Positions 2,797-39,792 of a stretch of DNA of 40,134 nucleotides are shown one piece after another. Origin of the DNA: a virus. The stretch lies in UHGV virus genome UHGV-0210680; one strand, written 5' to 3'. Numbering within the stretch: position 1 is the stretch's first letter; each line of letters starts with the position of its first letter. The notes below the pieces were generated by a model. That model ran no database searches. It was not told the origin of the DNA and saw only the letters and a program-made list of their open reading frames with translations. A program made the position numbers and the translations under genes.

Positions 2797-4962
2797 ATGG
2801 CCGACGAAAACAGACTCAACTCCATTCTGTGTAAGTTTGACGCGGACTGGATGGCGAGCGATGAAGCCAGAACCGAGGCGACAAATGACCTGTATTTTAG
2901 CCGAGTGTCGCAATGGGATGACTGGCTATCAAACTACACCACCCTGCAATATCGCGGACAATTCGATGTTGTTCGCCCGGTGGTCAGGAAGCTGGTCGCA
3001 GAGATGCGCCGGAACCCTATCGACGTTCTATTCAGACCAAAAGACGGAGCTAATCCTGATGCTGCCGATGTGCTGATGGGGATGTATCGTACTGATATGC
3101 GCCATAACACGGCAAAAATTGCCGTTAACGTTGGCGTTCGTGAGCAGATAGAGTCCGGCGTTGGTGCATGGCGTCTGGTCACGCAGTACGAAGACAACGA
3201 CCCAACAAGCAACAATCAGGTAATCCGACGCCTGCCAATCCATGAAGCTTGCTCACACGTTATATGGGACGCCAACAGCAAGCAGATGGATAAGAGCGAC
3301 GCTAAGCATTGCACGGTGATTAACGCCTTGTCGCGTAATGGCTGGAAAGAGTTCGCAGAGGATTACGGTATTGACCCGGATACCTTGCCATCTTTCCAGA
3401 ATCCTAACGATACATGGCTATTCCCGTGGGTGTCGAATGATGTCGTCTACGTCGCTGAGTATTACGAGGTAGAAGAGAAGAAGGAGAAGGTCTTCATCTA
3501 CCGCGACCCGCTGACAGGTGAGCCGGTCAGCTATTACCAGCAGGATATCAAAGACGTCATCGACGACCTGGCTAATCGTGGATTCATTAAGGTAGCAGAG
3601 CGCAAGGTGAAGCGTCGGCGTGTGTATAAGTCGATCATCACCTGCACGCAGATACTGAAAGACCGCGAGAAGATAGCCGGAGAGCATATTCCAATCGTTC
3701 CAGTGTATGGCGAATGGTCATTCGCTGGTGACAAGGAGTGCTACGAAGGAGTGGTAAGGCTGACGAAAGACGGTCAGCGCCTTCGTAACATGATCATGTC
3801 GTTCAACGCCGATATTGTTGCTCGTTCACCGAAGAAGAAACCTACCTTCTTCCCTGAGCAAATCGAAGGCTACGAATACATGTACGGTGGAAATGATGAC
3901 TATCCGTACTATCTGCAGAACAGGACCGATGAAAACGGTAACGACCTGCCGATTGGTCCAATCTCCTACATGGAAAACCCTGAAGTGCCGCAAGCCAACG
4001 CTTACATGCTTGAGGCTGCCACCAACGCAGTGAAAGAGGTGGCTAGTCTTGGCGTGGATGCGCAGGCGGCAAATGGTCAGGTCGCTTTCGATACCGTCAA
4101 TCAACTGAACATGCGGGCAGACCTTGAGACATACGTGTTTCAGGATAACTTGGCTACCGCAATGCGACGTGATGGCGAGATTTATGCCTCAATGGTCAAC
4201 GATATTTATGACGTTCCTCGTCATGTAACGCTGACACTTGAAGATGGAAGCGAGAAAGACATTCAACTCTATGCGCAAGTTGTAGATTACCAGTCTGGCA
4301 ATGTGGTCACACTCAACGACATTCGCGGTCGCTATGAGTGCTATACAGACGTTGGACCATCCTTCCAGAGTATGAAGGAACAGAACCGCGCAGAGATTCA
4401 GGAGTTACTCACCAAGGTTCCGCAAGGTACTCCAGAGTTCCAGATGCTGATGCTGCAATACTTCACGCTGCTTGACGGTAAAGGCGTCGAGATGATGCGA
4501 GAGTACGCGAACAAGCAACTGGTGATGATGGGGCTGAAGAAACCAGAAACACCTGAAGAGATGGAGATGGTGCAGCAGGCACAACAACAGCCGCAGCAGC
4601 CATCAGCAGAGCAAATTCAGGCGCAGGGCATCCTTCTGCAAGGTCAGGCTGAATTGCTCAAGGCAGAGAACCAACAGGCGCAGATTCAGGTTGAAGCTGC
4701 CAAGGTTGAAGCCCAAAACCAACTCAACGCCGCGAAGATTGCAGAAATCTTCAACAATATGGACCTCGACAAGCAGGCAGAACTGCGTGAGTACCTCAAG
4801 CTCGTAGGTCAATTCCAGCAACAGCGCAGCAAAGATGCTCGTGCTAACGCTGAGCTGCTTCTTAAAGATGCAGACCAGACTCATTCACAACGCATGGATT
4901 TCGCGAATCTTATGCGTCAAGTTCAAATCCCCTCCGGCGGAGTAGCCGAGACACCTCAATAA
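2797..4962 (+). CDS. portal protein (P22 gp1-like)
   Basis: 721-aa ORF with a long Q/A/E-rich C-terminal helical tail typical of P22-family portal barrels; conserved position between terminase and scaffold. Confidence 0.92.
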
Positions 4963-4975
4963 GAGAGAGTTAATC

Positions 4976-5887
4976 ATGGACCAAACCACCGACATTCAGG
5001 CTTCTGAAGAATTAACCCTGCCCGGCAATCATGCAGCGGCATCTGCTGATGGCTTAGTTGTCGATAATGCCAACGACAACGCAGGTCAGGAAGAAGGCTT
5101 CGAGATTGTCCTGAAAGACGATGAGAAACCAAAACAAGACCCGGCAACTAATGCTGAATTTGCCCGTCGCCGCATCGAACGCAAACGCCAGCGTGAGCTT
5201 GAGCAGCAGATGGAAGCGGTTAAGCGGGGAGAGTTGCCGGAGCACCTGCGGGTGAACCCTGAGTTACCAAAACAACCAGACCCTAACGATTATCTTTCCG
5301 AAGACGCACTGGCTAAGTACGACTATGACCAGAGCCGCGCACTGGCTGCCTTCCAGCAGGCAAACAGTGAATGGCAGATCAAGGCTATGGACGCACGAAG
5401 CCAGGCTGTCGCCGAGCAGGGTCGCAAAACTCAGGAGTTCACCCAGCAATCAGCGCAATACGTCGAGGCAGCCCGTAAGCACTACGACGCAGCGGAAAAG
5501 CTCAATATCCCTGACTATCAGGAGAAAGAGGATGCATTCATGCAACTGGTGCCGCCAGCAGTCGGTGCCGACATCATGCGCCTCTTCCCGGAGAAATCCG
5601 CCGCTCTCATGTATCACCTTGGTGCTAATCCTGAGAAAACACGCCAGTTGCTGGCGATGGACGGGCAATCCGCGCTGATTGAACTCACTCGACTGTCAGA
5701 ACGTTTAACTCTCAAGCCTCGAGCCAAGCCTGTTTCAGAAGCCCCGTTACCTGATGAACCCATTCAGGGACACGCTGTTGCTGCAAATATCTCTGCGATT
5801 GAAAAGCAGATGGAAGCGGCAGCAAACAAAGGGGATGTAGAGACGTACCGCAAGCTCAAGGCGCAACTGAATAAAGGAATTCGATAA
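4976..5887 (+). CDS. scaffolding protein (P22 gp8-like)
   Basis: 303-aa acidic, helical ORF immediately upstream of the coat gene; same length as P22 gp8. Confidence 0.8.
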
Positions 5888-7182
5888 TGGCATTAAATGA
5901 AGGTCAACTGGTCACGTATGCTCTGGATGAAATCATCGAAACCGTCCAGAACCTGACGCCAATGGCGTCCAAAGTGACAAAATACACCCCTCCGGCAGAA
6001 TCCATGCAGCGTTCAAGCAACACCGTGTGGATGCCTGTTGAGCAGGAAGCGCCAACTCAGACTGGCTGGGATTTAACTGGCAAAGCAACCGGGATTCTGG
6101 AGCTGTCCGTGAAATGCAACATGGGCGATCCGGATAACGATTTCTTCGAGCTTCGTGCAGATGACCTGCGTGATGAGCGTTCTTACCGTCGCCGCATCCA
6201 GGCATCTGCCAAAAAACTGGCGAATAACATTGAGTCAGCGATTGCCAAACAGGCAACTGAAATGGGCTCGCTTGTTGTTCACGATACCCGCGCAATTGGT
6301 CCATCTACTGGCCTGTCTGGCTGGGATTTTGTGTCTGATGCAGAGCGCCTGATGTTCTCCCGTGAGCTAAACCGCGATATGGGCATCAGTTACTTCCTGA
6401 ACCCTGACGATTACCGCAAAGCAGGCCGCAACCTGGTAGATGGTGACATCTTCGGGCGCGTTACTGAAGACGCGTATCACAACGGTACTATTCAGCGTCA
6501 GATTGCTGGCTTTGATGAAATTCTTCGCTCACCGAAACTTCCGGCGGTTACCAAGTCAACCGCTACTGGTGTAACTGTTTCTGGTGCGCAGAAGTTTAAG
6601 CCGCAGGCATACACCCTTGATACCGATGGTAACAAAGAGAACGTCGATAACCGTGTTGCAACGGTGACCGTATCCTCCACCACCGGATTTAAGCGCGGCG
6701 ACAAAATCAGCTTCACTGGTGTGAAATTCCTGTCTCAGATGGCGAAGAACGTGCTGACTGATGATGCGACTTTCTCAATCACCCGTGTGATCGATGGTAC
6801 TCACATCGAAATCACGCCGAAGCCGATTGCGCTGGATGACGCGTCACTGACAAAAGAAGAGAAGGCTTACGCTAACGTAAACACCTCTCTTGCTGATACT
6901 ACTCCGGTAAACGTTCTGAACGTGGCAACAACCACCGCTAACGTGTTCTGGGCTGATGACTCAATCCGCCTGCTGTCTCAGCCTATCCCGGTAACCCATG
7001 AACTGTTTGCTGGCATGAAAACTTCTTCCTTCAGCATTCCGGGTATTGGTGTTAACGGCATCTTCGCAACGCAGGGTGATATCAACACTCTGTCTGGTAA
7101 GTGCCGTATTGCTGTGTGGTATTCAGCATGCGCTGTGCGACCAGAGGCAATTGGTGTTGGTCTGCCTAACCAGACTGCGTGA
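5887..7182 (+). CDS. major capsid (coat) protein (P22 gp5-like)
   Basis: 431-aa ORF whose sequence (MALNEGQ...WMPVEQE...SPKLP...GVKFL.QMAKNVL...TPKP.ALDD...NVFWADD...IGVGLP.QTA) closely matches the P22 coat protein from memory. Confidence 0.95.
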
Positions 7183-7226: not shown

Positions 7227-7458
<232 letters not shown>

Positions 7459-7481
<23 letters not shown>

Positions 7482-7959
7482 TTTAGTCCTTGCAGCATTA
7501 CGTAAGCTCGGTGTGGCATCAAATGCCACGTTAACCGATGTCGAACCGCAGTCTATGGAAGACGGGGTCAACGACCTTGAAATGATGATGGCTGAATGGC
7601 TTGGCGGTGATGCGTCACCTGGGATCGACGTTGGCTACATTTTCGCTGATGCAGATGTCGCTCCAGATCCGGGCGATGAGCACGGTTTATCAAATAACGC
7701 TATCAATGCCGTCATTTTCAACCTTGCCTGCCGCATTGCTCCAGATTATGCGCTGGAAGCCTCTACAAAACTTATAACCACTGCCAGATACGGGAAAGAG
7801 CGACTCGTCAAACTGTCTGCAATGGACAGAGCAAAAGCCGCTAAATGTAAGTCCGGTTATCCAAACCGTATGCCTGTTGGTAGCGGTAATCAGTTGGCGA
7901 AGTGGAACGGTTGGAATTACTTCCAGCGAAAGGAACCTTGCGATAACGGGAGCGAATAA
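7459..7959 (+). CDS. head completion / tail adaptor protein (P22 gp4-like)
   Basis: 166 aa from the internal ATG at 7459 ([33 protein letters not shown]...), matching the P22 gp4 N-terminus and length. The longer ORF from 7366 runs through the repeat region. Confidence 0.85.
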
Positions 7960-9377: not shown

Positions 9378-10225
9378 TGGCGGATTCGAATCTCAATGTG
9401 CCGGTAATCATCCAGGCTACGCGGCTCGACACATCAGTCCTTCCACGCAATATCTTCTCGCAGTCATATCTGCTGTACGTTATCGCACAGGGTACTGATG
9501 TTGGTAACGTGGCGAACAAGGCCAACGAGGCCGGACAGGGCGCTTATGACGCACAGGTCAGAAACGATGAGCAGGATGTGATTCTCGCTGACCATGAGCA
9601 GCGAATTTCTGCTGCGGAAGCAACGCTTGTTAATCATGAGGAGCGAATCAGCCAGGCAGAATCAACTCTTCAGGAACATGAAACGCGAATCGCTCAGAAT
9701 GAAAGCGATATTGCGTCGCTTGATACCAGAGTTCAGTCGCTGGAGTCGCAGGTTTCAGACCATGAAACGCGCATCGATGCTCTGGAGTATGCCACTACTC
9801 GCAAGAAGTCAGAGGTTGTTTACTCTGGCGTATCTGTAACCATCCCGACAGCGCCGACCAACCTTGTTAGCCTGCTGAAAACGCTCACTCCGTCATCCGG
9901 CACGTTGGCACCATTCTTCGACACTGTTAACAACAAGATGGTTGTGTTCAACGAGAACAAAACCTTGTTCTTCAAGCTGTCGATCGTCGGGACGTGGCCC
10001 AGCGGAACCGCCAACAGGTCAATGCAGCTAACCTTTTCCGGCTCTGTTCCTGATACGCTGGTCAGCAGTCGTAATGCGGCGACAACAACCGACAACATCC
10101 TGTTAGCTACATTCTTCAGCGTGGATAAAGACGGATTTCTTGCCACAAATGGCAGTACGTTAACCATTCAGTCGAATGGTGCGGCGTTTACTGCCACAAC
10201 CATCAAGATAATCGCGGAGCAGTGA
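9377..10225 (+). CDS. tail needle protein (gp26-like) with C-terminal knob domain
   Basis: N-terminus ([38 protein letters not shown]) matches the P22 gp26 N-terminal domain, followed by heptad-like HE.RI repeats and a beta-rich C-terminal extension of about 120 aa that P22 lacks (Sf6-type needle, 282 aa). Confidence 0.85.
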
Positions 10226-10680
10226 TGATTCAGTTCAAACCAACGCGAAACATCGACCTGATAGAAGCCGTGGGAAATCACCCCGACATTATCGCCGGGA
10301 GCAACAACGGTGATGGATACGACTACAAGCCTGAATGCCGTTACTTCGAGGTGAACGTGCACGGGCAGTTCGGCGGCATTGTTTACTATCAGGAGATTCA
10401 GCCTTTGACCTTTGATTGCCACGCCATGTACCTGCCAGAGGTTCGTGGATTCAGCAAGGAAATCGGGCTGGCGTTCTGGCGATACATTCTTACTAACACC
10501 ACCGTTCAGTGCGTCACATCGTTCGCTGCGCGCAAATTCCGCCACGGTCAGATGTACTGCGCAATGATTGGCCTTAAGCGTGTAGGAACCATCAAGAAAT
10601 ACTTCAAAGGCGTGGATGACGTGACATTTTACAGCGCCACACGCGAAGAACTAATCGACTTCCTGAATCACGGGAGATAG
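10222..10680 (+). CDS. gp14-like virion assembly / ejection-associated protein
   Basis: 152-aa ORF at the position of P22 gene 14, between needle and gp7; assignment by synteny only. Confidence 0.6.
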
Positions 10681-10682
10681 CC

Positions 10683-11375
10683 ATGTTATATGCATTTAAG
10701 CTGGGCAGAAAACTGCGCGGCGAGGAACCTTATTGCCCTGAAAAAGGCGGGAAAGGTGGCAGTTCTGATAAAAGTGCAAAGTATGCCGCAGAAGCTCAGA
10801 AGTATGCCGCAGACCTGCAAAATCAGCAGTGGCAGACGATCATGAAAAACCTTGCTCCGTTCACGCCGCTTGCGGAGCAGTATGTTAACCAGCTTCAGAA
10901 CCTTTCCAGTTTAGAAGGTCAGGGGAAGGCACTTAATCAGTATTACAACTCTCAGCAGTATAAAGACCTTGCAGGTCAGGCTCGCTACCAGAGTCTTGCT
11001 GCTGCGGAGGCGACGGGTGGACTTGGTTCGACAGCCACAAGCAATCAACTGGCTACAATCGCGCCGACTCTCGGTCAGTCTTGGTTATCAAACCAGATGA
11101 GCAATTACAACAATCTGGCAAACGTTGGGCTTGGTGCGCTGCAAGGTCAGGCAAACGCCGGGCAGACGTACGCCAACAACATGAGCAGCATTGCACAGCA
11201 AAGCGCAGCTCTTGCCGCTGCTAATGCCAATAAACCATCAAGTCTTCAGACTGCAATTAGCGGTGGCACGTCTGGTGCGATTGCCGGTGCAGGTCTTGCC
11301 AGCCTTTTGGGAACATCAACACCTTGGGGCGCTGGCATTGGTGCTGGTATCGGATTGCTTGGCTCGTTGTTTTAA
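10683..11375 (+). CDS. ejection (internal) protein gp7-like
   Basis: 230-aa ORF starting MLYAF.LGRKLRGEEP.., with a Q/N/A-rich middle and Gly-rich hydrophobic C-terminus; matches P22 gp7 in length and position. Confidence 0.8.
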   Translation: MLYAFKLGRKLRGEEPYCPEKGGKGGSSDKSAKYAAEAQKYAADLQNQQWQTIMKNLAPFTPLAEQYVNQLQNLSSLEGQGKALNQYYNSQQYKDLAGQARYQSLAAAEATGGLGSTATSNQLATIAPTLGQSWLSNQMSNYNNLANVGLGALQGQANAGQTYANNMSSIAQQSAALAAANANKPSSLQTAISGGTSGAIAGAGLASLLGTSTPWGAGIGAGIGLLGSLF

Positions 11376-11384
11376 GGGGTAATC

Positions 11385-12716
11385 ATGGCTACTTGGCAAG
11401 GAACAAATGGCGGATTGTTGGCTGGTATCGGTGGTGTCAACTCAAACGCTCCGAGCGTAAATGACATCGGCAACACGCTTCAGCTTATCAGGCAGAACAA
11501 TGATATTGAGCGTTCAGGCGCTAACAATGTTGGGCTGACAGCTTTGCAAGGCCTTTCAGGTATTGCAGGGGTGTTTCAGCAGGAAAAGCAGGCTCAGCGG
11601 CAGAAAGAATTTCAGCAGGCATACGCTAATGCTTATGCTTCTGGTGATCGCGGAGCTTTGCGTCAGTTGGCTACTCAATATCCAGACCAGATTGAATCCG
11701 TTCGTAAAGGCATGGGATTCATCGATGAAGAGCAGCGTAATTCTATCGGCACCTTAGCGGCTGGCGCACGCCTTGCGTCATCGTCTCCAGAAGCAATGCA
11801 ATCATGGCTGCAAAACAACGCCGGTGAGTTAGCTCGTGTTGGCGTTAATCCTCATGACGTCGCTCAGATGTACCAACAGAACCCGCGGCAGTTCGGCGAA
11901 TTTGTCGATCACCTGGGGATGAACAGTCTCGGGCCAGAAAAATACTTTGACCTACAGGATAAAATGCAGGGTCGCCAGGTTACCATGCGCGGTCAGGATC
12001 TGGATTCGCAAACCGCCGCTCGGAATCAGGCAATCACAATGCGCGGACAAGATATCCAGGCGAATTTAGGTCAGCAGCGCATTAATCTGGACGCAGAAAC
12101 AAACCGCATTAACAACGAAAATAAGCGCCTTGACCGGATGCTATCAGCAGAAACTAACGACCTGAAGCGCCAGGAAATACAGAGCCGCATAGCAGCCAAC
12201 AACCAGCAGTTGCAGCAGAAGCAGCAAGCGCTAAATGATGGCTACAAAGACGGCATCAACACCCTCACAACCAGCATGTTCACTCTGAACGATATCGTTA
12301 GTTCTCCTTCACTTAAGAGCATTACAGGCTTACGTGGAGTAATCCCCAACGTTCCAGGCTCACAGGCTGCAGACACTCAGGCACGACTTGATACCTTTAA
12401 ATCACAAGCATACCTGACAGCGGTTCAGGCCATGCGAGGCATGGGCGCACTTTCTGATGCCGAGGGCAAAAAGCTCGACCAGGCTGTTGGTTCGCTGCAG
12501 AACTCGCAGAGCGAGGAGTCCTTTCGTCGCAACGCTGGCGTCATCCTGAACACGCTCAACCAGAAGCGTAATGAGGCGGTTGGTAAGTACGTTCAGCAAA
12601 ACGGTATCAAGCGAGTGGAAGCGCCTCAGGCTTCTATAGATTACCTGAAGCAGCACCCCGAGCTGTCAATCGACTTCATTAATCGCTACGGATATCTTCC
12701 ATCTTTGGGGCAGTAA
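11385..12716 (+). CDS. ejection protein gp20-like
   Basis: 443-aa ORF at the position of P22 gene 20 between gp7 and gp16. Confidence 0.75.
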   Translation: MATWQGTNGGLLAGIGGVNSNAPSVNDIGNTLQLIRQNNDIERSGANNVGLTALQGLSGIAGVFQQEKQAQRQKEFQQAYANAYASGDRGALRQLATQYPDQIESVRKGMGFIDEEQRNSIGTLAAGARLASSSPEAMQSWLQNNAGELARVGVNPHDVAQMYQQNPRQFGEFVDHLGMNSLGPEKYFDLQDKMQGRQVTMRGQDLDSQTAARNQAITMRGQDIQANLGQQRINLDAETNRINNENKRLDRMLSAETNDLKRQEIQSRIAANNQQLQQKQQALNDGYKDGINTLTTSMFTLNDIVSSPSLKSITGLRGVIPNVPGSQAADTQARLDTFKSQAYLTAVQAMRGMGALSDAEGKKLDQAVGSLQNSQSEESFRRNAGVILNTLNQKRNEAVGKYVQQNGIKRVEAPQASIDYLKQHPELSIDFINRYGYLPSLGQ

Positions 12717-15110
12717 ATGGCTAATTACCGTGATTTGTTAGAGCAGGCTGGCGCACGTTACGGTGTGCCAGAAGGGTTGATGACTGCACTGGGTGCCAAG
12801 GAGTCTTCTTACAACCCTGCCGCAGTAAGCTCCGCCGGGGCTGTAGGATTGACTCAGGTCATGCCTGGGACATGGCGTGATATGGGTTATACCGATGAGC
12901 AAATGCAAAACCCCGAATATCAGGCTGACGCTGGCGCGCGCTATCTGGCAAAGATGTACCAGCAGTTTGGTAACTGGCGTGACGCTCTTCAGGCTTATCA
13001 CGACGGTCCCGGCAACGTTATGAAGGCAAAGCGTGGTGAATATACGCCAGGACCTGAAGGCCGCGGTTACGTTGATGATCGCTTTGCTCAATGGGCGGGT
13101 GACCCGGTGACAGACTCAACAATCGAACAGCGCGCCACCTCTGCAAAGGTACATCCTCAGCAAGACCCTAACAACCCGTTTGCACAACTGGAAGCACAGT
13201 CATCCGAACAAGTATCGGCATCAGGCGTGCAGTCAGACCCAAATAATCCATTTGCTCAGATTGAGCAGCAGGCAGCCAGTCAGCAGCCACCTCAACCCGT
13301 AAGTTCTGTCGCACCGAAACCTGTTCAGCAGCAAGGCGGAATAATGTCTGACCTTGGTAATGGACTTGCTGAAACCGGGCGCGGCTTACTACAGGCAGGA
13401 ATCAACGTAGCGAACATACCTGCTGAACTCACTGATGCTGTAACAAGCGCGGCGGCTTGGGCTGGCGGTAAACTCGGCATTGGCGATGGTACATATCAAC
13501 CAGCACCACGAGTAACAACGCAGGGATTAGAGCAGGACTTTGGCCTTCAGCAAGGCGCGCTGACTCCACAAACGACAGAGGGGAGGGTATTTGCTGAAGC
13601 ATTTCCTTACCTCACTCCTGCTGGCGTTGAGAGAGCGGCAACACAGGCACCAACACTTGCTGGTCGAATTGCTCAGGGGGCAACTCGCCTTCTCGCAGAA
13701 AACGCAGTTGGATCACTTGCTGCAAACAGTATGAAAGATGATGCGGAAGCACTCGCTACCGATTTAGGCGTTGGTGTGCTGGCTGGCGGTGCTATTAACG
13801 CTGCCGGACGTGGATTAGGTGCTGCTTATCGTGGCGTTCGTGGTGCTATTGCGCCAGAAGCGCAGCAGGCTATCAGATTTGCAGAGCGTGAAGGAGTTCC
13901 TCTGCACACCACAGATCTGTTACAGCCTACTTCCCGCGTCGGGAAAATGGCGCAGACGACAGCGGAAAATATCCCCCTGGCTGGCACAAGCGGAATGAGA
14001 GCAACGCAACAGGAAGCGAGAAGCCAGTTGGTGCAGAGATTTGCTGATAAATTCGGTGAGTATGATCCAACTGTTGTTATTGACAGCCTTAAAGCGAAAA
14101 CATCAGGAATTCGTCGTGCTGCAGGGAACCGTCTTGAGCAGGTTCAGAATGCTATGGCTGGAGTAAACATTCAGCCTGCGCGAGCAATTCAGCAGATTGA
14201 TACTGAGATATCTAACCTGCAGAAGCTTGGTAAGGTTGCTGATAACGAGACTATTTCAAAACTTCAGTCATATCGTGATGAGCTTGTTCGCAATGCTGGC
14301 CCTGATGGTCCGGTTAATCTGGATTTGAAGCAATTAAGCGATCTGCGCAGCCAGTTCAGAATGGACGTGAAGGGGGAGCGACCAGTGTTACCAAACCGTT
14401 CCGATGCTGCCATTCAGCGCGTTTACAAGGCAATGACTGACGATATCAATGGTGCCATTGGTCAGAATCTTGGCAACGATACTCTCCGTAAATATCAGCA
14501 GGCCAATGCCGTCTACGCTGACGAAGCGGCGAAACTAAAGAATACCAGGCTGAAGAATGTTCTCATGAAAGGCGATCTGACGCCGGAAGTTGTCAACAAC
14601 ATGCTATTCAGCAAGAACAAATCGGAAATTAAGACGCTGTATAACTCAGTTGGTCGTGTTGGCAGGGCGCAAATGCGCAATGGCATCATTGGAAAGGCGA
14701 TGGAGAAATCAGGTGGTTCCCCTGACCAGTTCCTTCGACAGCTTAACATCCTGCAAAACCAGACTGGCATCACATTTAAAGGTCAGGAAGCCGCTTATCT
14801 GAAAGGATTGAAAAACTACCTGCAATCCACGCAGCAGGCTGCAAAAGCGGCAGTAACAACACCAACAGGGCAGCAAACCATCCCGTTCATTATCGGATAT
14901 GGGACAGCAATGAACCCTGCGACAACTGGCGCAGCGGTAAGCTACGGACTTCTTACTCGTGCCTATGAGAGCGAGTCATTCAGAAATGCAATGCTCCGAA
15001 TGGCAAACACCCCACGCGGATCAACAGCCTTTGAGAAAGCAATGCAGCAGGCACAAAAGGCAATTAACGCTCTGACGCAGGGGGCTAAGTCTGATGCGTT
15101 GTCAGAATAG
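12717..15110 (+). CDS. ejection protein gp16-like with N-terminal lytic transglycosylase (SLT) domain
   Basis: 797-aa ORF at the gene-16 position; the N-terminal ~110 aa carry SLT-like motifs (E-S-S-Y.P.A.S..GA.GL.QVMPGTW...Y); the rest is A/Q-rich, typical of ejection proteins. Confidence 0.75.
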   Translation: MANYRDLLEQAGARYGVPEGLMTALGAKESSYNPAAVSSAGAVGLTQVMPGTWRDMGYTDEQMQNPEYQADAGARYLAKMYQQFGNWRDALQAYHDGPGNVMKAKRGEYTPGPEGRGYVDDRFAQWAGDPVTDSTIEQRATSAKVHPQQDPNNPFAQLEAQSSEQVSASGVQSDPNNPFAQIEQQAASQQPPQPVSSVAPKPVQQQGGIMSDLGNGLAETGRGLLQAGINVANIPAELTDAVTSAAAWAGGKLGIGDGTYQPAPRVTTQGLEQDFGLQQGALTPQTTEGRVFAEAFPYLTPAGVERAATQAPTLAGRIAQGATRLLAENAVGSLAANSMKDDAEALATDLGVGVLAGGAINAAGRGLGAAYRGVRGAIAPEAQQAIRFAEREGVPLHTTDLLQPTSRVGKMAQTTAENIPLAGTSGMRATQQEARSQLVQRFADKFGEYDPTVVIDSLKAKTSGIRRAAGNRLEQVQNAMAGVNIQPARAIQQIDTEISNLQKLGKVADNETISKLQSYRDELVRNAGPDGPVNLDLKQLSDLRSQFRMDVKGERPVLPNRSDAAIQRVYKAMTDDINGAIGQNLGNDTLRKYQQANAVYADEAAKLKNTRLKNVLMKGDLTPEVVNNMLFSKNKSEIKTLYNSVGRVGRAQMRNGIIGKAMEKSGGSPDQFLRQLNILQNQTGITFKGQEAAYLKGLKNYLQSTQQAAKAAVTTPTGQQTIPFIIGYGTAMNPATTGAAVSYGLLTRAYESESFRNAMLRMANTPRGSTAFEKAMQQAQKAINALTQGAKSDALSE

Positions 15111-15199: not shown

Positions 15200-15460
15200 T
15201 TATCTGCTGTCTTTTTTATATAGCTCCTTGAGCGTATCAAAGACAATTTTCTTAACCATATCAGATTGTTGTTCTGCCATACGCTCTGCATCGTCAATGT
15301 AAACTGATGCAGAGCTTTGTTTATCCAATGATTCTTCAATCGCTGCAATTATCTCTGAGTTAAGCGACCTGTTATTCATCTTCGCACGCAGCTTAATTTT
15401 CGCGTGAAGTTCATGCGGAAGTCTCAAGTGAAACTGCGCCTCGTCGTATTTGCTGTACAT
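15200..15460 (-). CDS. mnt: Mnt repressor (ribbon-helix-helix)
   Basis: 86 aa from the ATG at 15460 (MYSKYDEAQFHLRLPHELHAKIKLRAKMNNRSLNSE...NDAERMAEQQSDMVKKIVFDTLKELYKK) closely matching P22 Mnt; an alternative ATG lies at 15493. The 252-aa ORF in the track is an antisense extension into the tailspike gene. Confidence 0.85.
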   Translation of the reverse strand: MYSKYDEAQFHLRLPHELHAKIKLRAKMNNRSLNSEIIAAIEESLDKQSSASVYIDDAERMAEQQSDMVKKIVFDTLKELYKKDSR

Positions 15461-15595
15461 CCTTGATGCCTCACCAGTTGGGTGGAATGGCATCGTAAAA
15501 CCTACTGTACAAATCAACAATCGTACCGTTTCGGTATGCAACAAACACCAACCGTAGCCACGCTGCGGCGATTCCTTGTATCTGGAGCAAATTAA

Positions 15596-17734
15596 ATGAC
15601 AGACATTACAGCCAATGTGATCGTATCGATGCCTTCGCAACTTTTCACTATGGCGCGTTCTTTTAAAGCGGTTGCCAATGGCAAAATTTATATCGGTAAA
15701 ATTGACACGGACCCCGTAAATCCAGAAAACCAGATTCAGGTTTATGTGGAGAACGAAGACGGCTCTCACGTTCCTGTTTCGCAACCAATCATCATTAATG
15801 CTGCTGGATATCCGGTATATAACGGACAGATTGCCAAATTCGTAACTGAGCAAGGCCATTCTATGGCTGTTTATGATGCGTATGGTGCACAGCAGTTCAA
15901 ATTCCCAAATGTGCTGAAGTACGACCCTGATCAATTTGAGATTAGGCTTTCTAATCAAGACGGCGCTGGTCTTGTTGGGATTATGCCATATGGCACGGTA
16001 CAGGATGCCATCAAATGGGTTGTCCCCGAGGTATTCCCCGGAAGTAATGCGTCAGAAAAATTACAGGCAGCTGTAAATTATGCGGTTGCAAACAAAACGA
16101 GAGTTGTAGCATCAGGTGTGTACGATGTAACAGCCCCCGTCACCATCCCAGGAGACATCATTATCGATGCTTCTACTGGAGAATTTACCTTCAATGGCAT
16201 TGATTATATTTTCCATCCGCTTGGCGCAAAATCAGTAGAGATTATCGGTGGTAAGTTCACCGCAAATGCATACCACACCCAGCGTCCTCAGGTAATTTTC
16301 AATGATTACCCTGATGGGCTGGCGAATTTACCAACGCGCGTGGTGATAAAAGATATGCAATGCTTTAACTGCGGTGTTGGCTACATCATGGTTAACTGTC
16401 AGGACCCAACCAGCGTACATATTTCAGTTGAAAATAACTATTGTACGACTGATGATAATACAGATTTATATATATCAAATTCAGATATGCATCCAGGAGA
16501 AAGCATATTCCCATATTTAACAATACTTGGTGATACGCTTGATTCTGTAGATTTGGGAACACCAAGAAAATCAATGTTCCATGTAACAGGAAATACATTC
16601 GATGTGTTTATGCAATCAGGTTATAATACAGATATATATAAAATAGGAAGCACAACAGTAGGAGGGGAAACAACAGGAAATAGGTTCATAAATAGGAATG
16701 AAGAATCATCATGTGAAATTGATACGTTCACCGGAGGTCTTGAATGTGTTATTGATAATAACACAATGTGGAATGTTTCTGTAAAAGCCATGACGTTATT
16801 AATAAGTGGCGGTGAACGAGTTGGTCTTGGTGGAAGATCATCTATAAGTAATAACGTTTTTCATTTTGAAAAAAACCCACTTAATGATTTTGGAATATGG
16901 TTAAGAACATCACTGGTAAATGTATGTAACAATGTTATTTATTATGTTGGATCTGATAACCCCTCAGAGCAACGTACATTTAACGGAATTTCAGGGCAAA
17001 AATTAGATAATAATAACAATGGATTTGGTGGTGATTGGTGTGCTGGTAATAACGTATCCAACAACATAATTCAAATTATTACAGGTGAAGTTGACAAATC
17101 TGTTAGAGTGCAATGCATCAATCCTACTGATTTCGCTGGGAGCGTTTTTAATGGAAATTGTCTTTTTGGTGGTAATGGTATGGTGATAGATGCAAGACCT
17201 GAAAGAAATAGAAATGTCTGGAGTGGTAATTATATAAGCTCTGGTCTATTTTCTGCTGAGGATATATGGAGAATGAATTCCGCATTCGTTGGTGGAAGTA
17301 ATTATATTGGAAGTTCTTACGATAACTCTGTTCGTGGCCCATATCTTTTAAGAAAGGAAATACCAGCTCAACAAGATGGGAGTATAATAAGAATTGAATT
17401 GGATTATGCGATAAATAATGGATACGCTTCGGACAGATGTCTTTATCTCTTAATGGTAAAAGTTAATGGTGGGATTAAAAATAACTATCAGACATTTGTT
17501 GTCTCTTCTGGAGCTCACGATGCGCAAGATCTAAAGCCAGCAATAGACGAAAGAATAGACCCAAACACAACTGACAACAATTTAAAACAAATATCATTTA
17601 GAGCTGGTTATACAGGTTCTAGTGGGCTAATTGTTTTGCAGGCAAGGGGTAATTATTATTCATCAGGAAATCCACCGACATCTATAGAATATTCTATTAT
17701 ACCGTTAACAGCAAACTTCCCCATGGCATTTTAA
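15596..17734 (+). CDS. tailspike protein (P22 gp9-like head-binding domain plus divergent receptor-binding domain)
   Basis: The N-terminal ~120 aa (MTDITANV.VS.P...SFKAVANGKIYIG.IDTDPVNP.NQI.VY.ENEDGSHV...NVLKYDPDQ) match the P22 tailspike head-binding domain. The remaining ~590 aa are N/G/S/I-rich and encoded by markedly AT-rich DNA. GGAG RBS upstream. Confidence 0.9.
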   Translation: MTDITANVIVSMPSQLFTMARSFKAVANGKIYIGKIDTDPVNPENQIQVYVENEDGSHVPVSQPIIINAAGYPVYNGQIAKFVTEQGHSMAVYDAYGAQQFKFPNVLKYDPDQFEIRLSNQDGAGLVGIMPYGTVQDAIKWVVPEVFPGSNASEKLQAAVNYAVANKTRVVASGVYDVTAPVTIPGDIIIDASTGEFTFNGIDYIFHPLGAKSVEIIGGKFTANAYHTQRPQVIFNDYPDGLANLPTRVVIKDMQCFNCGVGYIMVNCQDPTSVHISVENNYCTTDDNTDLYISNSDMHPGESIFPYLTILGDTLDSVDLGTPRKSMFHVTGNTFDVFMQSGYNTDIYKIGSTTVGGETTGNRFINRNEESSCEIDTFTGGLECVIDNNTMWNVSVKAMTLLISGGERVGLGGRSSISNNVFHFEKNPLNDFGIWLRTSLVNVCNNVIYYVGSDNPSEQRTFNGISGQKLDNNNNGFGGDWCAGNNVSNNIIQIITGEVDKSVRVQCINPTDFAGSVFNGNCLFGGNGMVIDARPERNRNVWSGNYISSGLFSAEDIWRMNSAFVGGSNYIGSSYDNSVRGPYLLRKEIPAQQDGSIIRIELDYAINNGYASDRCLYLLMVKVNGGIKNNYQTFVVSSGAHDAQDLKPAIDERIDPNTTDNNLKQISFRAGYTGSSGLIVLQARGNYYSSGNPPTSIEYSIIPLTANFPMAF

Positions 17735-17739
17735 TAAAT

Positions 17740-17764
17740 GCCAGCGCATGACAAGTGCGCTGGC
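17740..17764. terminator. bidirectional rho-independent terminator between convergent tailspike and oac genes
   Basis: Perfect 9-bp stem GCCAGCGCA / TGCGCTGGC with a 7-nt loop, flanked by A/T-rich sequence on both sides, between the tailspike stop (17734) and the oac stop (17773). Confidence 0.7.
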
Positions 17765-17772
17765 ATTGCTGG

Positions 17773-18780
17773 TCATATTATCTTATTCAAATACTTTAAT
17801 TTACTAATAATCAAGCTAGCTGCTAAAGAAGATGCAAAAACTACCACTATCATAAAGAGCATGTATACAATAGAGAATGCATTTATTTTTAATAAATGTC
17901 TCAATAAATAAGAGTAAAGCTCAATAAAAATAGGATGTATTAAATACACTCCAAGTGTTAGGCTTGCTAGTTTTTTTGATAATAACGACTCTCCACCATT
18001 GATTGAAGAACATATCGCGAATATTAACACCGATGAAATAAAAACATTTAAGCTTAAATAGTCATAGAAATACACTCGACCAAACTTATAAGCTAAAATA
18101 GCCGTTATTATCAATGAAATTAATGTGAATATAGTACACATGCAAAGTTTTTCTGTTTTCTTTGCCCTAAACACACCACCAATAACGAAGTAGCCTATAT
18201 AATTTAAAAATGTTATCATGAAAAATTGCGGTTTGTTGTTTTCCATGCCAACAACGTTGTTGTATATTAGATTAATCAATGGCAATGCAGAGCATATTAC
18301 AATGAGGATTGTTACTTCATTATCACTTGATTTTGCAATTATTTTTCTTAAAAAAGGCGTTATAATATATAAAAAAGGAATCATATATAAAAACCACATA
18401 TGGTAATATGGTTTACCAGCTAAAAGCTGTTTTATTGATGTTATAACCCCTAGAGTTATATCACCTTTGATGTATGACTTAAATATTGTCCATGCGATAT
18501 ATATCATCGTCCATGCCAATACTGGGATCAATATCCTCGTCATTCTTTTTTTGTAAAAACTAATTGTAGAATCCGTTCCATTTATCAAAAAGTAACCACT
18601 CAACATAACAAAAACAGGAACGCTCCATCTGCTGAATGAATCAAGAATATTTGCAGACCACCAAAGTGTAGATCCATAGAAGCTTGGGTTAGTATCTGCG
18701 AAAGTAACATACCCAGCTGTGACATGTATAACAACAACCATAAAAATGGCAAATACTCTTAAATTATAAGCCCACTGCAT
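17773..18780 (-). CDS. oac: O-antigen O-acetyltransferase (acyltransferase-3 family integral membrane protein)
   Basis: 335-aa, very hydrophobic multi-pass ORF with an N-terminal motif typical of the acyltransferase-3 family (RVFAIFMVVVIHV...W.......FSRWSVP.FVMLSGYFL); very AT-rich; sits between tailspike and int as oac does in Sf6. Confidence 0.8.
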   Translation of the reverse strand: MQWAYNLRVFAIFMVVVIHVTAGYVTFADTNPSFYGSTLWWSANILDSFSRWSVPVFVMLSGYFLINGTDSTISFYKKRMTRILIPVLAWTMIYIAWTIFKSYIKGDITLGVITSIKQLLAGKPYYHMWFLYMIPFLYIITPFLRKIIAKSSDNEVTILIVICSALPLINLIYNNVVGMENNKPQFFMITFLNYIGYFVIGGVFRAKKTEKLCMCTIFTLISLIITAILAYKFGRVYFYDYLSLNVFISSVLIFAICSSINGGESLLSKKLASLTLGVYLIHPIFIELYSYLLRHLLKINAFSIVYMLFMIVVVFASSLAASLIISKLKYLNKII

Positions 18781-38544: not shown

Positions 38545-38868
38545 ATGAAGATGCCAGAAAAACATGACCTGTTAGCCGCCATTCTCGCGGCAAAGGAACA
38601 AGGCATCGGGGCAATCCTTGCGTTTGCAATGGCGTACCTTCGCGGCAGATATAATGGCGGTGCGTTTACAAAAACAGTAATCGACGCAACGATGTGCGCC
38701 ATTATCGCCTGGTTCATTCGTGACCTTCTCGACTTCGCCGGACTAAGTAGCAATCTCGCTTATATAACGAGCGTGTTCATCGGCTACATCGGTACTGACT
38801 CGATTGGTTCGCTTATCAAACGCTTCGCTGCTAAAAAAGCCGGAGTAGAAGATGGTGGAAATCAATAA
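38545..38868 (+). CDS. S: holin / antiholin S (dual-start motif MKM)
   Basis: 107-aa [65 protein letters not shown]..., matching lambda S107/S105 as recalled. Confidence 0.95.
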
Positions 38869-39328
38869 TCAACGTAAGGCGTTCCTCGATATGCTGGCGT
38901 GGTCAGAGGGAACTGATAACGGACGTCAAAAAACCAGAAATCATGGTTATGACGTCATTGTTGGCGGAGAGCTATTCACTGATTACTCCGATCACCCTCG
39001 CAAACTTGTCACGCTAAACCCCAAACTCAAATCAACAGCCGCAGGACGTTACCAGCTTCTTTCCCGTTGGTGGGATGCCTACCGCAAGCAGCTTGGCCTG
39101 AAAGACTTCTCTCCGAAAAGTCAGGACGCTGTGGCATTGCAGCAGATTAAGGAGCGTGGCGCTTTGCCGATGATTGATCGCGGTGATATCCGTCAGGCAA
39201 TCGACCGTTGCAGCAATATCTGGGCTTCACTGCCGGGTGCTGGTTATGGCCAGTTCGAGCATAAGGCTGACAGCCTGATTGCAAAATTCAAAGAAGCAGG
39301 CGGAACGGTCAGAGAGGTTGAGGTATGA
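38852..39328 (+). CDS. R: endolysin R (lambda-type lytic transglycosylase)
   Basis: 158-aa [56 protein letters not shown]..., matching lambda R as recalled; overlaps the 3' end of S. Confidence 0.95.
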
Positions 39329-39792
39329 GCAGAGTCACCGCGATTATTTCCGCTCTGGTTATCTGCATCATCGTCTGCCTGTCATGGGCTGTTAATCATT
39401 ACCGTGATAACGCCATGGCCTACAAAGAACAGCGAGATAAAAAAGTCAGTGAGCTGAAGCAGGCGACCGCCACCATTACTGACATGCAGCAGCGCCAGCG
39501 TTCTGCTGATGCACTCGATGCTAAATACACGAAGGAGTTAGCTGATGCGAAAGCTGAAAATGATGCTCTTCGGCGCAAGCTTGATAATGGTGGTCGGGTG
39601 TTCGTCAAAGGAAAATGCCCTGTGCCATCCTCAGCCGAAACCTCCAGCGCCTCCGGCATGGGCAATGATGCCACCGTCGAACTCTCTCCAGTTGCTGGAC
39701 GAAACGTTCTCGGTATCCGGGACGGAATTATCCGCGACCAAACAGCACTGAGAACGCTTCAGGAATACATCAGGACGCAATGCCTTCGATGA
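39325..39792 (+). CDS. Rz: spanin inner-membrane subunit Rz
   Basis: 155-aa ORF with an N-terminal TM segment ([23 protein letters not shown]) and a coiled-coil periplasmic domain; lambda Rz-like. Confidence 0.9.
39545..39751 (+). CDS. Rz1: spanin outer-membrane lipoprotein Rz1 (embedded in Rz, +1 frame)
   Basis: 68-aa ORF wholly inside Rz in another frame: signal peptide plus lipobox (LIMVVGC) followed by a Pro-rich segment ([11 protein letters not shown]), as in lambda Rz1. Confidence 0.8.

Follow-up and report, generated by a model that had tools for sequence, protein, structure and literature searches.

The window analysed here is the 40,134-nucleotide (nt) UHGV virus genome UHGV-0210680, a complete genome of a P22-like (Lederbergvirus-type) phage of E. 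coli, and the gene in question occupies positions 12717..15110 of its plus strand. It encodes a 797-amino-acid (aa) ejection protein in the position of P22 gp16, composed of an SLT domain, a linker and a Phage_P22_gp16 body, as assigned from the list of open reading frames (ORFs), the Pfam SLT match and the PHROGs family phrog_770. A preliminary description, made without database searches, had placed a gp16-like ejection protein of this length at these positions and had reported lytic transglycosylase motifs within its first ~110 residues. An ATG-initiated ORF lies exactly there, with the stop codon of gp20 directly 5' of the ATG, and the motifs are present. Unless stated otherwise, the features of this gene discussed below are on the plus strand.

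Residues 1 to ~127 (12717..13097) are a genuine SLT domain, that is, a family-1 lytic transglycosylase domain of the GH23 type. At aa 7–110 the Pfam model PF01464 scores 88.6 bits (E = 2.7e-25), above its gathering threshold of 21.3, which places the domain inside the family. The best sequence match among solved structures is E. coli Slt70 (1qsa, E = 2.2e-11), and T7 gp16 (7eyb_I) was also matched by sequence search with the SLT domain (E = 3e-4). All three family motifs can be recognized in the alignment with Slt70. Motif I ('AKES' here, 'RQES' in Slt70) puts the predicted catalytic Glu29, followed by Ser30 (12801..12806), on Glu478 of Slt70; motif II (GLTQVMPGT, aa 44–52, 12846..12872) corresponds to GLMQIMPGT and forms part of the string GLTQVMPGTW at aa 44–53 of the 797-aa protein; and motif III (AYHDGPG, aa 93–99, 12993..13013) is a variant of AYNAGPG that carries the replacements N95 to H and A96 to D.

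We aligned the protein with 114 diverse SLT proteins at 28–44% identity (115 sequences in all). Seven columns of this alignment are invariant (E29, S30, A42, G44, Q47, Y94 and G97), and the window protein has the invariant residue in 7 of 7. Positions L45, M49, P50 and T52 of motif II are conserved at 90% or more, and the two replacements in motif III are the sole departures at nearly invariant positions. The preliminary description had stated in advance that its reading would fall if the catalytic glutamate were missing from an alignment; E29 is present in register with Glu478 and is shared by all 115 proteins. Homologs as distant as 72% overall identity also retain the Glu–Ser pair and every invariant SLT position, as does P0378, an 802-aa protein of a distant P22-like metagenomic phage with a body only ~33% identical to that of the window protein.

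The AlphaFold2 model computed from the 115-protein alignment has predicted local distance difference test (pLDDT) scores of 89–97 over residues 1–110 and adopts a lysozyme-like alpha-helical fold. When the model was compared with the PDB by Foldseek, the matches at E ≤ 0.001 were lytic transglycosylases only (LtgA, Slt, Slt70, MltE, MltC, MltF and MltD, among them entries 5o1j, 5ohu and 1qte), with a probability of 1.00, and the next match was again T7 gp16 (7eyb_I, E = 1.3e-3). Judged by its motifs and its modelled fold, the domain looks catalytically competent and would be expected to cleave the bonds between N-acetylmuramic acid and N-acetylglucosamine (MurNAc-GlcNAc) in peptidoglycan.

Purifying selection on the SLT domain is strong, and no other part of the gene is as constrained. 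Ratios of nonsynonymous to synonymous divergence (dN/dS) were estimated by the Nei–Gojobori method with homolog DNA from Cronobacter, Klebsiella aerogenes and a metagenomic (Logan) contig; synonymous divergence (dS) was saturated for most of the K. aerogenes and Logan comparisons, and full dN/dS values come from the Cronobacter pair only. Relative to the Cronobacter homolog, dN/dS is 0.021 in the SLT domain compared with 0.129 in the linker and 0.080 in the body, and relative to K. aerogenes the value for the SLT domain is ~0.04 or less, with dS saturated. Because the SLT domain is the most constrained part, the notion that it is a decaying or merely structural remnant is disfavoured. The dS values against Cronobacter differ strongly within this one gene (0.32 in the SLT domain and 2.09 in the body), which confirms that the SLT domain and the body have separate histories.

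The preliminary description regarded the protein as an enlarged gp16. This is correct in terms of length, as the reference proteins are all shorter than 797 aa (609 aa in P22, 655 in BTP1, 665 in Sf6, where the protein is called gp13, 719 in CUS-3, with the sequence taken from CP000711, and 722 in HK620), but it is not a simple enlargement, since a module of 207 aa stands in place of an N-terminal module (N-module) of ~55–75 aa. From ~aa 208 onward, the body is 96.8% identical to aa 76–665 of Sf6 gp13 and 77.8% identical to BTP1 gp16, and homology to P22 gp16 extends over aa 314–786 at 35% identity (E = 6e-75). The short N-modules are of two types, MAKAWKDV... (~75 aa; Sf6, HK620 and CUS-3) and MKVTANGKTF... 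(~60 aa; P22 and BTP1), and the 207 aa of SLT domain and linker sit at the same position. The comparison with Sf6, HK620 and CUS-3 proposed in the preliminary description showed the domain in none of them; more generally, no SLT domain was found in the gp16 proteins of P22, Sf6, HK620, CUS-3 and BTP1 with Pfam or with a hidden Markov model (HMM) of the SLT domain built from the 115-sequence alignment, nor in the Sf6 and BTP1 proteins with NCBIfam. Sf6 gp13 and the gp16 proteins of phage L and BTP1 thus resemble the window protein in body and operon position and differ in having short N-modules without SLT and gp20 C-terminal parts of other types (35% and 22% identity). The prototype, P22 gp16, likewise shares a homologous part of the body and its place as third gene of the 7-20-16 ejection cluster, and differs in its N-module and the lack of SLT.

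Each of the three N-modules is found on more than one type of body, and the SLT module in particular is joined to Sf6-type bodies in the window and in phage IME10 and to an unrelated body of 911 aa in phage Sf101. The mosaic joint is located at QQQGG(I/F)MSDLG (13326..13365), where nucleotide homology to the Sf6/BTP1-type gp16 genes resumes; in blastn comparisons, homology to Sf101 ends at 13334, while homology to Sf6 starts at 13329 and homology to BTP1 at 13326. Taken from these alignments and breakpoints, the evidence indicates a module swap and not an insertion, with the SLT domain and its linker replacing a short N-module.

The exchanged segment is not confined to the gp16-position gene. 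The C-terminal ~265 residues of gp20 (11921..12716) and the SLT module form a single mosaic block (11921–13334) that was inherited as a unit, as seen both in blastn breakpoints and in the linkage of the two parts among E. coli genomes. The window and Sf6 are 94–95% identical on either side of a single replaced block at ~11921–13329, spanning the final ~265 residues of gp20 together with aa 1–204 of the gp16-position protein, and Sf101 is 97.4% identical to the window over 10225–13334 and divergent beyond. Of 5,426 complete E. coli genomes, 70 contain the SLT cassette and 69 the gp20 C-terminal block (67 each at ≥80% coverage), and the two have adjacent coordinates in every genome on both lists. 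The type of gp20 C-terminus tracks the type of gp16 N-module in 11 of the 11 phages compared. The SLT module pairs with a gp20 ending in '...DFINRYGYLPSLGQ'; the MAKAW module pairs with '...FSSLWGD', the rest of the gp20 C-terminal part being only 26% identical between Sf6 and HK620; and the MKVTANG module pairs with '...SKSGI(K/Q)FTVE' in P22 and BTP1, which are 26% identical in the N-terminal part of gp20 and 35% identical in the gp16 body. The block exists in at least three unrelated types, with boundaries inside gp20 and inside gp16.

These observations lead us to suggest, tentatively, that the SLT domain could be half of a two-gene interface module, in which the gp20 C-terminus and the gp16 N-terminus are exchanged together and P22-like phages would carry interchangeable cassettes for this joint of the periplasmic tunnel; we regard this as possible rather than probable. 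The gp20 C-terminus may contact the N-terminal linker of gp16, with its DPNNPFAQxE repeats, within the conduit, in analogy to the contact in T7 between the gp15 C-terminus and the 'molecular tape' of the gp16 N-terminus. The linkage may equally be a matter of contiguity, the two segments being adjacent and so highly diverged that homologous recombination cannot separate them. With the swap and the linkage to gp20 as refinements, the interpretation given in the preliminary description is supported, and the muralytic activity and its delivery with the ejected proteins would follow by analogy with characterized phages.

The linker (aa 128–207, 13098..13337) is rich in Q, P, A and S (19.5% Q, 13.4% P) and is predicted to be flexible from its composition and its low pLDDT, which is 52–77 in the model of the N-module and below 50 in the full-length model. 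It contains two copies of a ten-residue repeat, DPNNPFAQLE (aa 150–159, 13164..13193) and DPNNPFAQIE (aa 174–183, 13236..13265). The copies share 9 of 10 residues compared with 21 of 30 nucleotides, and the repeat went undetected by a DNA repeat finder; the motif is therefore maintained at the protein level. The repeats are present in homologs that are 72–86% identical overall. Two homologs, P0100 (886 aa) and P0105 (880 aa), have an extra insert of ~95 aa directly after the second repeat ('GNIDIHNRPVVKNPDGSISTV...DGREVLIPTV...'), for which no Pfam match was found, and which suggests that the linker tolerates further modules.

The body begins with a low-confidence, Gly/Ala-rich third (aa 208–374, 13338..13838), recognized from pLDDT and hydropathy. 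In the full-length model pLDDT falls below 50 at aa 184–235 and 282–367, and the whole low-confidence stretch, counted from within the linker, covers aa ~130–370. The most hydrophobic stretch of the 797-aa protein is the Gly/Ala-rich segment at aa ~342–371; its Kyte–Doolittle maximum of 1.36 at aa 345–363 is marginal for a membrane helix. The remainder (aa 375–797, 13839..15107) is the conserved all-alpha core of the gp16 family, modelled entirely as helices with pLDDT of 90–98. Membership of the gp16 family, which comprises 1117 representatives at 50% clustering, is established by body homology, both in the alignments with Sf6, BTP1 and P22 and in the match to phrog_770 ('DNA transfer protein') over aa 108–797 (E = 1.2e-237). 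Both PF26808 (Phage_P22_gp16) and PF01464 are precomputed on database proteins 99% identical to the window protein, and it is from these proteins that PF26808 membership was read, this family being outside the local Pfam copy. A sequence search with the body (aa 208–797) matched no PDB chain at E ≤ 0.01 in a library that includes the T7 gp16 entries 7eyb, 7k5c, 9jyy and 6yt5, a fold search with the full-length model returned helical-bundle noise only (all E > 0.3), and gp20 has no PDB relative detectable by sequence. The term 'channel-forming', applied to the body in the preliminary description, is carried over from P22 gp16 by analogy.

The operon position of the gene is fixed by the two ejection-protein genes immediately upstream (10683..12716, plus strand), gp7 at 10683–11375 (PF25688 P22_gp7, E = 2.8e-134) and gp20 at 11385–12716 (PF16928 Inj_translocase, E = 1.1e-67). 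These are preceded by gp14, and the tailspike gene follows downstream (15596–17734), so that the gene is the third of the gp7-gp20-gp16 cluster in a P22-like virion operon. The genome further encodes the small and large terminase subunits, portal, scaffold, coat, gp4, gp10, a needle of the Sf6 type, a tailspike with a P22 head-binding domain, an acyltransferase and an integrase. The order gp4-gp10-gp26-gp14-gp7-gp20-X, where X stands for the gp16-position gene, is the same in the window and in four divergent homologs. The Cronobacter, K. aerogenes and metagenomic homologs whose DNA was used for dN/dS have this gene order. As listed, the ORF of gp4 (P22_Tail-4; 7366–7959, plus strand) encodes 197 aa and its Pfam match begins at residue 33; the true start is probably internal and yields a P22-like protein of ~166 aa.

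Between the gp16-position gene and the tailspike lies a minus-strand gene for a ribbon-helix-helix repressor of the Mnt/Arc type (15200–15460). The Pfam matches to Mnt and Arc fall in the C-terminal part of ORF 15200–15958, and the locus is what is left of the P22 immI region, ant being absent. Further downstream, in region 15596–18780, the tailspike combines a P22-type head-binding N-terminal domain with a receptor-binding part of another kind (phrog_29018), and the gene after it, on the minus strand, encodes an O-antigen-type acyltransferase (Acyl_transf_3). The GC content across this region is 30–38% compared with ~50% in the virion genes, and this drop suggests that 15596–18780 is a recently acquired module for host range and serotype conversion.

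The fusion of SLT to a gp16-type body turned out to be less unusual than the preliminary description supposed, being widely present and already annotated. The ortholog in phage IME10 is 98.7% identical in amino acid sequence over all 797 aa (97.5% in nucleotides); its gene, at 3501–5894 of NC_019501.1, is unannotated in NC_019501.1, JF974339 and JN600960. Phages Sf101, Dewey, Huey and APC_JM3.2 are 99.0–99.4% identical to the window over the first 618 nt of the gene, and phiKp_30 has most of the gene at 94.3% nucleotide identity. Sf101 combines the same N-module with its 911-aa body, which is 21% identical to that of the window over the last 450 aa, and its protein is annotated as 'transglycosylase' or 'lytic tail fiber protein'. 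Among 5.8 billion proteins searched, the combination of PF01464 and PF26808 was found at 98–99% identity in numerous E. coli assemblies; a single cluster at 90% has 1295 members. At 72–86% identity the architecture occurs in Cronobacter, K. aerogenes, Kosakonia and Enterobacter, mostly under the name 'lytic transglycosylase domain-containing protein', and many prophages of Cronobacter and Klebsiella have an SLT-gp16 annotated as lytic transglycosylase. Altogether, databases list more than 1000 sequences with the single fused ORF, which occurs in several P22-like genera and is already annotated in hundreds of prophages.

Within E. coli, the exact junction of SLT and Sf6-type body was found in 53 of the 260–335 genomes that have an Sf6-type body; the SLT form accounts for ~1.3% of complete E. 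coli genomes and for ~20% of prophages with an Sf6-type body. In the wider family, an N-terminal SLT domain is present in 5 of the 115 full-length proteins (≥550 aa) found among the best 150 of the 1117 gp16-family representatives, P0378 being one of the five. The gp16-position proteins of ST231 (Murrayvirus, 1008 aa) and Skarpretter (Skarprettervirus, 977 aa) also carry SLT. In these two phages and in P0378, as in the window, the N-terminal SLT domain belongs to the protein encoded after homologs of gp7 and gp20; the bodies are longer or only ~33% identical, and the SLT domains of ST231 and Skarpretter are 42–61% identical to that of the window by tblastn. SLT-gp16 is a recurrent minority form that is already catalogued by Pfam, PHROGs and RefSeq, and the protein is not new. 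A different enzymatic addition is seen in the gp16-family member P0366 (1043 aa), which has a C-terminal inorganic pyrophosphatase-like domain (PF18823, E = 5e-56).

Full-text searches found no paper on SLT fusions in P22-like phages within the literature covered, and the survey by Casjens and Thuman-Commike (2011) may mention them. The only such remark in the Sf101 genome paper is that the injection proteins have low identity to those of CUS-3, and a 2022 review states that P22-like phages lack such a domain, a generalization that the present gene and its relatives show to be too broad. There are also lessons for annotation: the records of IME10 miss the gene, and the name 'lytic transglycosylase domain-containing protein' is attached in GenBank and RefSeq to SLT-less Sf6-type gp13 proteins of 665 aa (Sf6 3222–5219, VSe13 3222–5219, clusters P0116 and P0118). 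Since neither Pfam nor NCBIfam nor our local SLT HMM finds SLT in Sf6 gp13, this label was apparently carried over from relatives that do have the fusion. Three further database entries, P0111, P0117 and P0120, are chimeric ORFs in which the N-terminus of the needle, gp7 or NinG is joined directly to a gp16 body or Sf6-type gp13, and they probably derive from deleted, defective prophages.

For 25 years, T7 has provided a known example of an ejected protein that begins with a lytic transglycosylase. T7 gp16, like the gp16 proteins of T3 and phiYeO3-12, resembles the window protein in that three ejection-protein genes stand in a row and the SLT domain forms the extreme N-terminus of the product of the last, which is also the largest; in both, the SLT domain is followed by an extended segment and then by a large helical part, and the SLT domains are detectably homologous by sequence and by fold. 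The proteins differ in the rest, as T7 gp16 has 1318 aa, forms a core stack and has a body without detectable similarity to that of the window protein, which is therefore not a member of the T7 gp16 family. Since the SLT domain resembles bacterial Slt70 (E = 2e-11) more than T7 gp16, the shared architecture looks convergent or separately acquired, to judge from these sequence comparisons. Recent descent from T7 gp16 is rejected on the same grounds and because the bodies are unrelated. In T7, DNA entry needs the transglycosylase activity of gp16 under certain conditions (PMC8954989).

The phage has a separate lysis cassette, consisting of a holin gene (38545–38868), a gene for a lambda-R-type endolysin (38852–39328; 1am7, E = 3.6e-105) and Rz (39325–39792). 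The SLT gene is not encoded with the holin and spanin genes; it belongs to the virion operon, ~13 kb past the lysis genes in late-operon order and 26 kb away in window coordinates. With this cassette in place, the possibility that the SLT protein is the endolysin of the phage is rejected, and the SLT enzyme is most likely used during entry, like that of T7. We consider it likely, by analogy with T7, that the gene encodes a third ejection protein whose N-module has been replaced by a cassette of SLT domain and flexible linker, and that this cassette provides peptidoglycan cleavage during entry, with a benefit that depends on conditions.

Virions of P22 contain gp16, which leaves the particle ahead of the genome and is needed for DNA transfer across the inner membrane (PMC8402733, PMC10883804), and from homology we infer that the 797-aa protein is packaged and ejected and has a role in DNA transfer as well. 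Going by P22 gp16 and Sf6 gp13, the head would contain about a dozen copies, and these would leave through the portal-tail channel before the DNA does. If the protein works like T7 gp16, its N-terminal domain would then refold in the periplasm and cleave MurNAc-GlcNAc bonds beside the nascent gp7/gp20 conduit, with Glu29 as the acid catalyst, and the peptidoglycan mesh would be widened locally around the forming gp7/gp20/gp16 conduit. The low-confidence tether of ~240 residues would let the enzyme reach the wall, and the core at aa 375–797 would presumably do the usual job of gp16 at the inner membrane.

Several points weigh against this proposal. Motif III is off consensus (AYHDG instead of AYNAG, owing to the replacements at N95 and A96), and the literature searched yielded no enzymatic, proteomic or genetic data on the protein or its close homologs. 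Five well-studied P22-like phages infect without an SLT domain, and the basic mechanism thus does not require it. The muralytic activity of the P22 virion is assigned to gp4 in the neck, the only virion-associated lysin listed for P22 (PMC5380687), and the gp4 gene (7366–7959) is kept by the phage in the window. The inner-membrane role of the body is taken over from work on P22, with no structural match and a marginal hydrophobic segment in the body itself, and a mechanism involving the whole fusion presupposes that the N-terminal module stays unprocessed through packaging. Because near-identical phages (the Sf6 body is 96.8% identical) lack the domain, the SLT activity is most likely an accessory that would help under some conditions, for example in highly cross-linked walls, as reported for T7, and not an absolute requirement.

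It is conceivable that the SLT domain binds peptidoglycan without cutting it and has been retained as an anchor for docking or orienting the conduit in the wall. The H95 and D96 of its non-canonical motif III, in place of the nearly invariant N and A, would suit such a role, as would the fact that SLT-less relatives function without the enzyme. However, binding-only SLT derivatives usually lose the glutamate, whereas here the Glu–Ser pair and all invariant positions are kept both down to 72% overall identity and in P0378, and a dN/dS of 0.02 is the value expected of an enzyme; an anchor therefore seems improbable to us. About equally doubtful is the idea that the exchange of the gp20 C-terminus with the gp16 N-terminus is driven mainly by prophage superinfection exclusion of the SieA type acting on the ejection proteins, with the SLT domain as a passenger. 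Mutants of P22 that escape SieA have changes in genes 20 and 16, and the ejection proteins of HK620 make P22 resistant to SieA (PMC10883804); the block boundaries inside gp20 and gp16 and the existence of at least three unrelated block types are likewise in keeping with such selection. It would account for the turnover of modules but not for the SLT domain being the most conserved segment (dN/dS 0.02), and it gives no reason for the repeated appearance of SLT fusions, on divergent bodies, in distant P22-like genera. Exchange driven by SieA and an enzyme acting at entry are compatible with each other.

Two other scenarios are much harder to reconcile with the data. The locus might make two products, or represent two genes, namely an SLT protein and a gp16 body initiated at an internal Met210, which lies exactly at the mosaic joint and is preceded by a weakly Shine–Dalgarno-like AAGGCGGA stretch. 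No stop codon separates the two parts here or in more than 1000 homologs, and in phages lacking SLT the body never starts at this point but has another N-module before it; the methionine is not conserved, being Ile in BTP1, and on this ground the internal start is rejected and the scenario judged very unlikely. Less likely still is a role late in infection, at lysis or particle release. Lytic transglycosylases can be endolysins, lambda R among them, but the complete cassette of holin, lambda-R-type endolysin and Rz is located elsewhere, the SLT domain is fused to an ejection protein inside the virion-assembly operon, and its N-terminus has no signal or signal-arrest-release (SAR) sequence, the hydropathy scan showing no strongly hydrophobic N-terminal stretch. 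An enzyme acting at entry is the reading that we prefer.

How the short-tailed P22-like phages take their DNA conduit through the peptidoglycan is not settled, and gp4 in the neck is the only virion lysin described for P22 (PMC5380687). The natural alleles with and without SLT are near-isogenic, with bodies 97% identical, and would allow a clean measure of the contribution of the SLT domain to infection. The joint inheritance of the gp20 C-terminus and the gp16 N-terminus may mark an interaction interface between the two proteins. If so, the natural pairs with and without SLT would directly test how the peptidoglycan is crossed and whether gp4 is the lysin, and one version of the interchangeable joint cassette of P22-like phages would bring its own wall-cutting enzyme.

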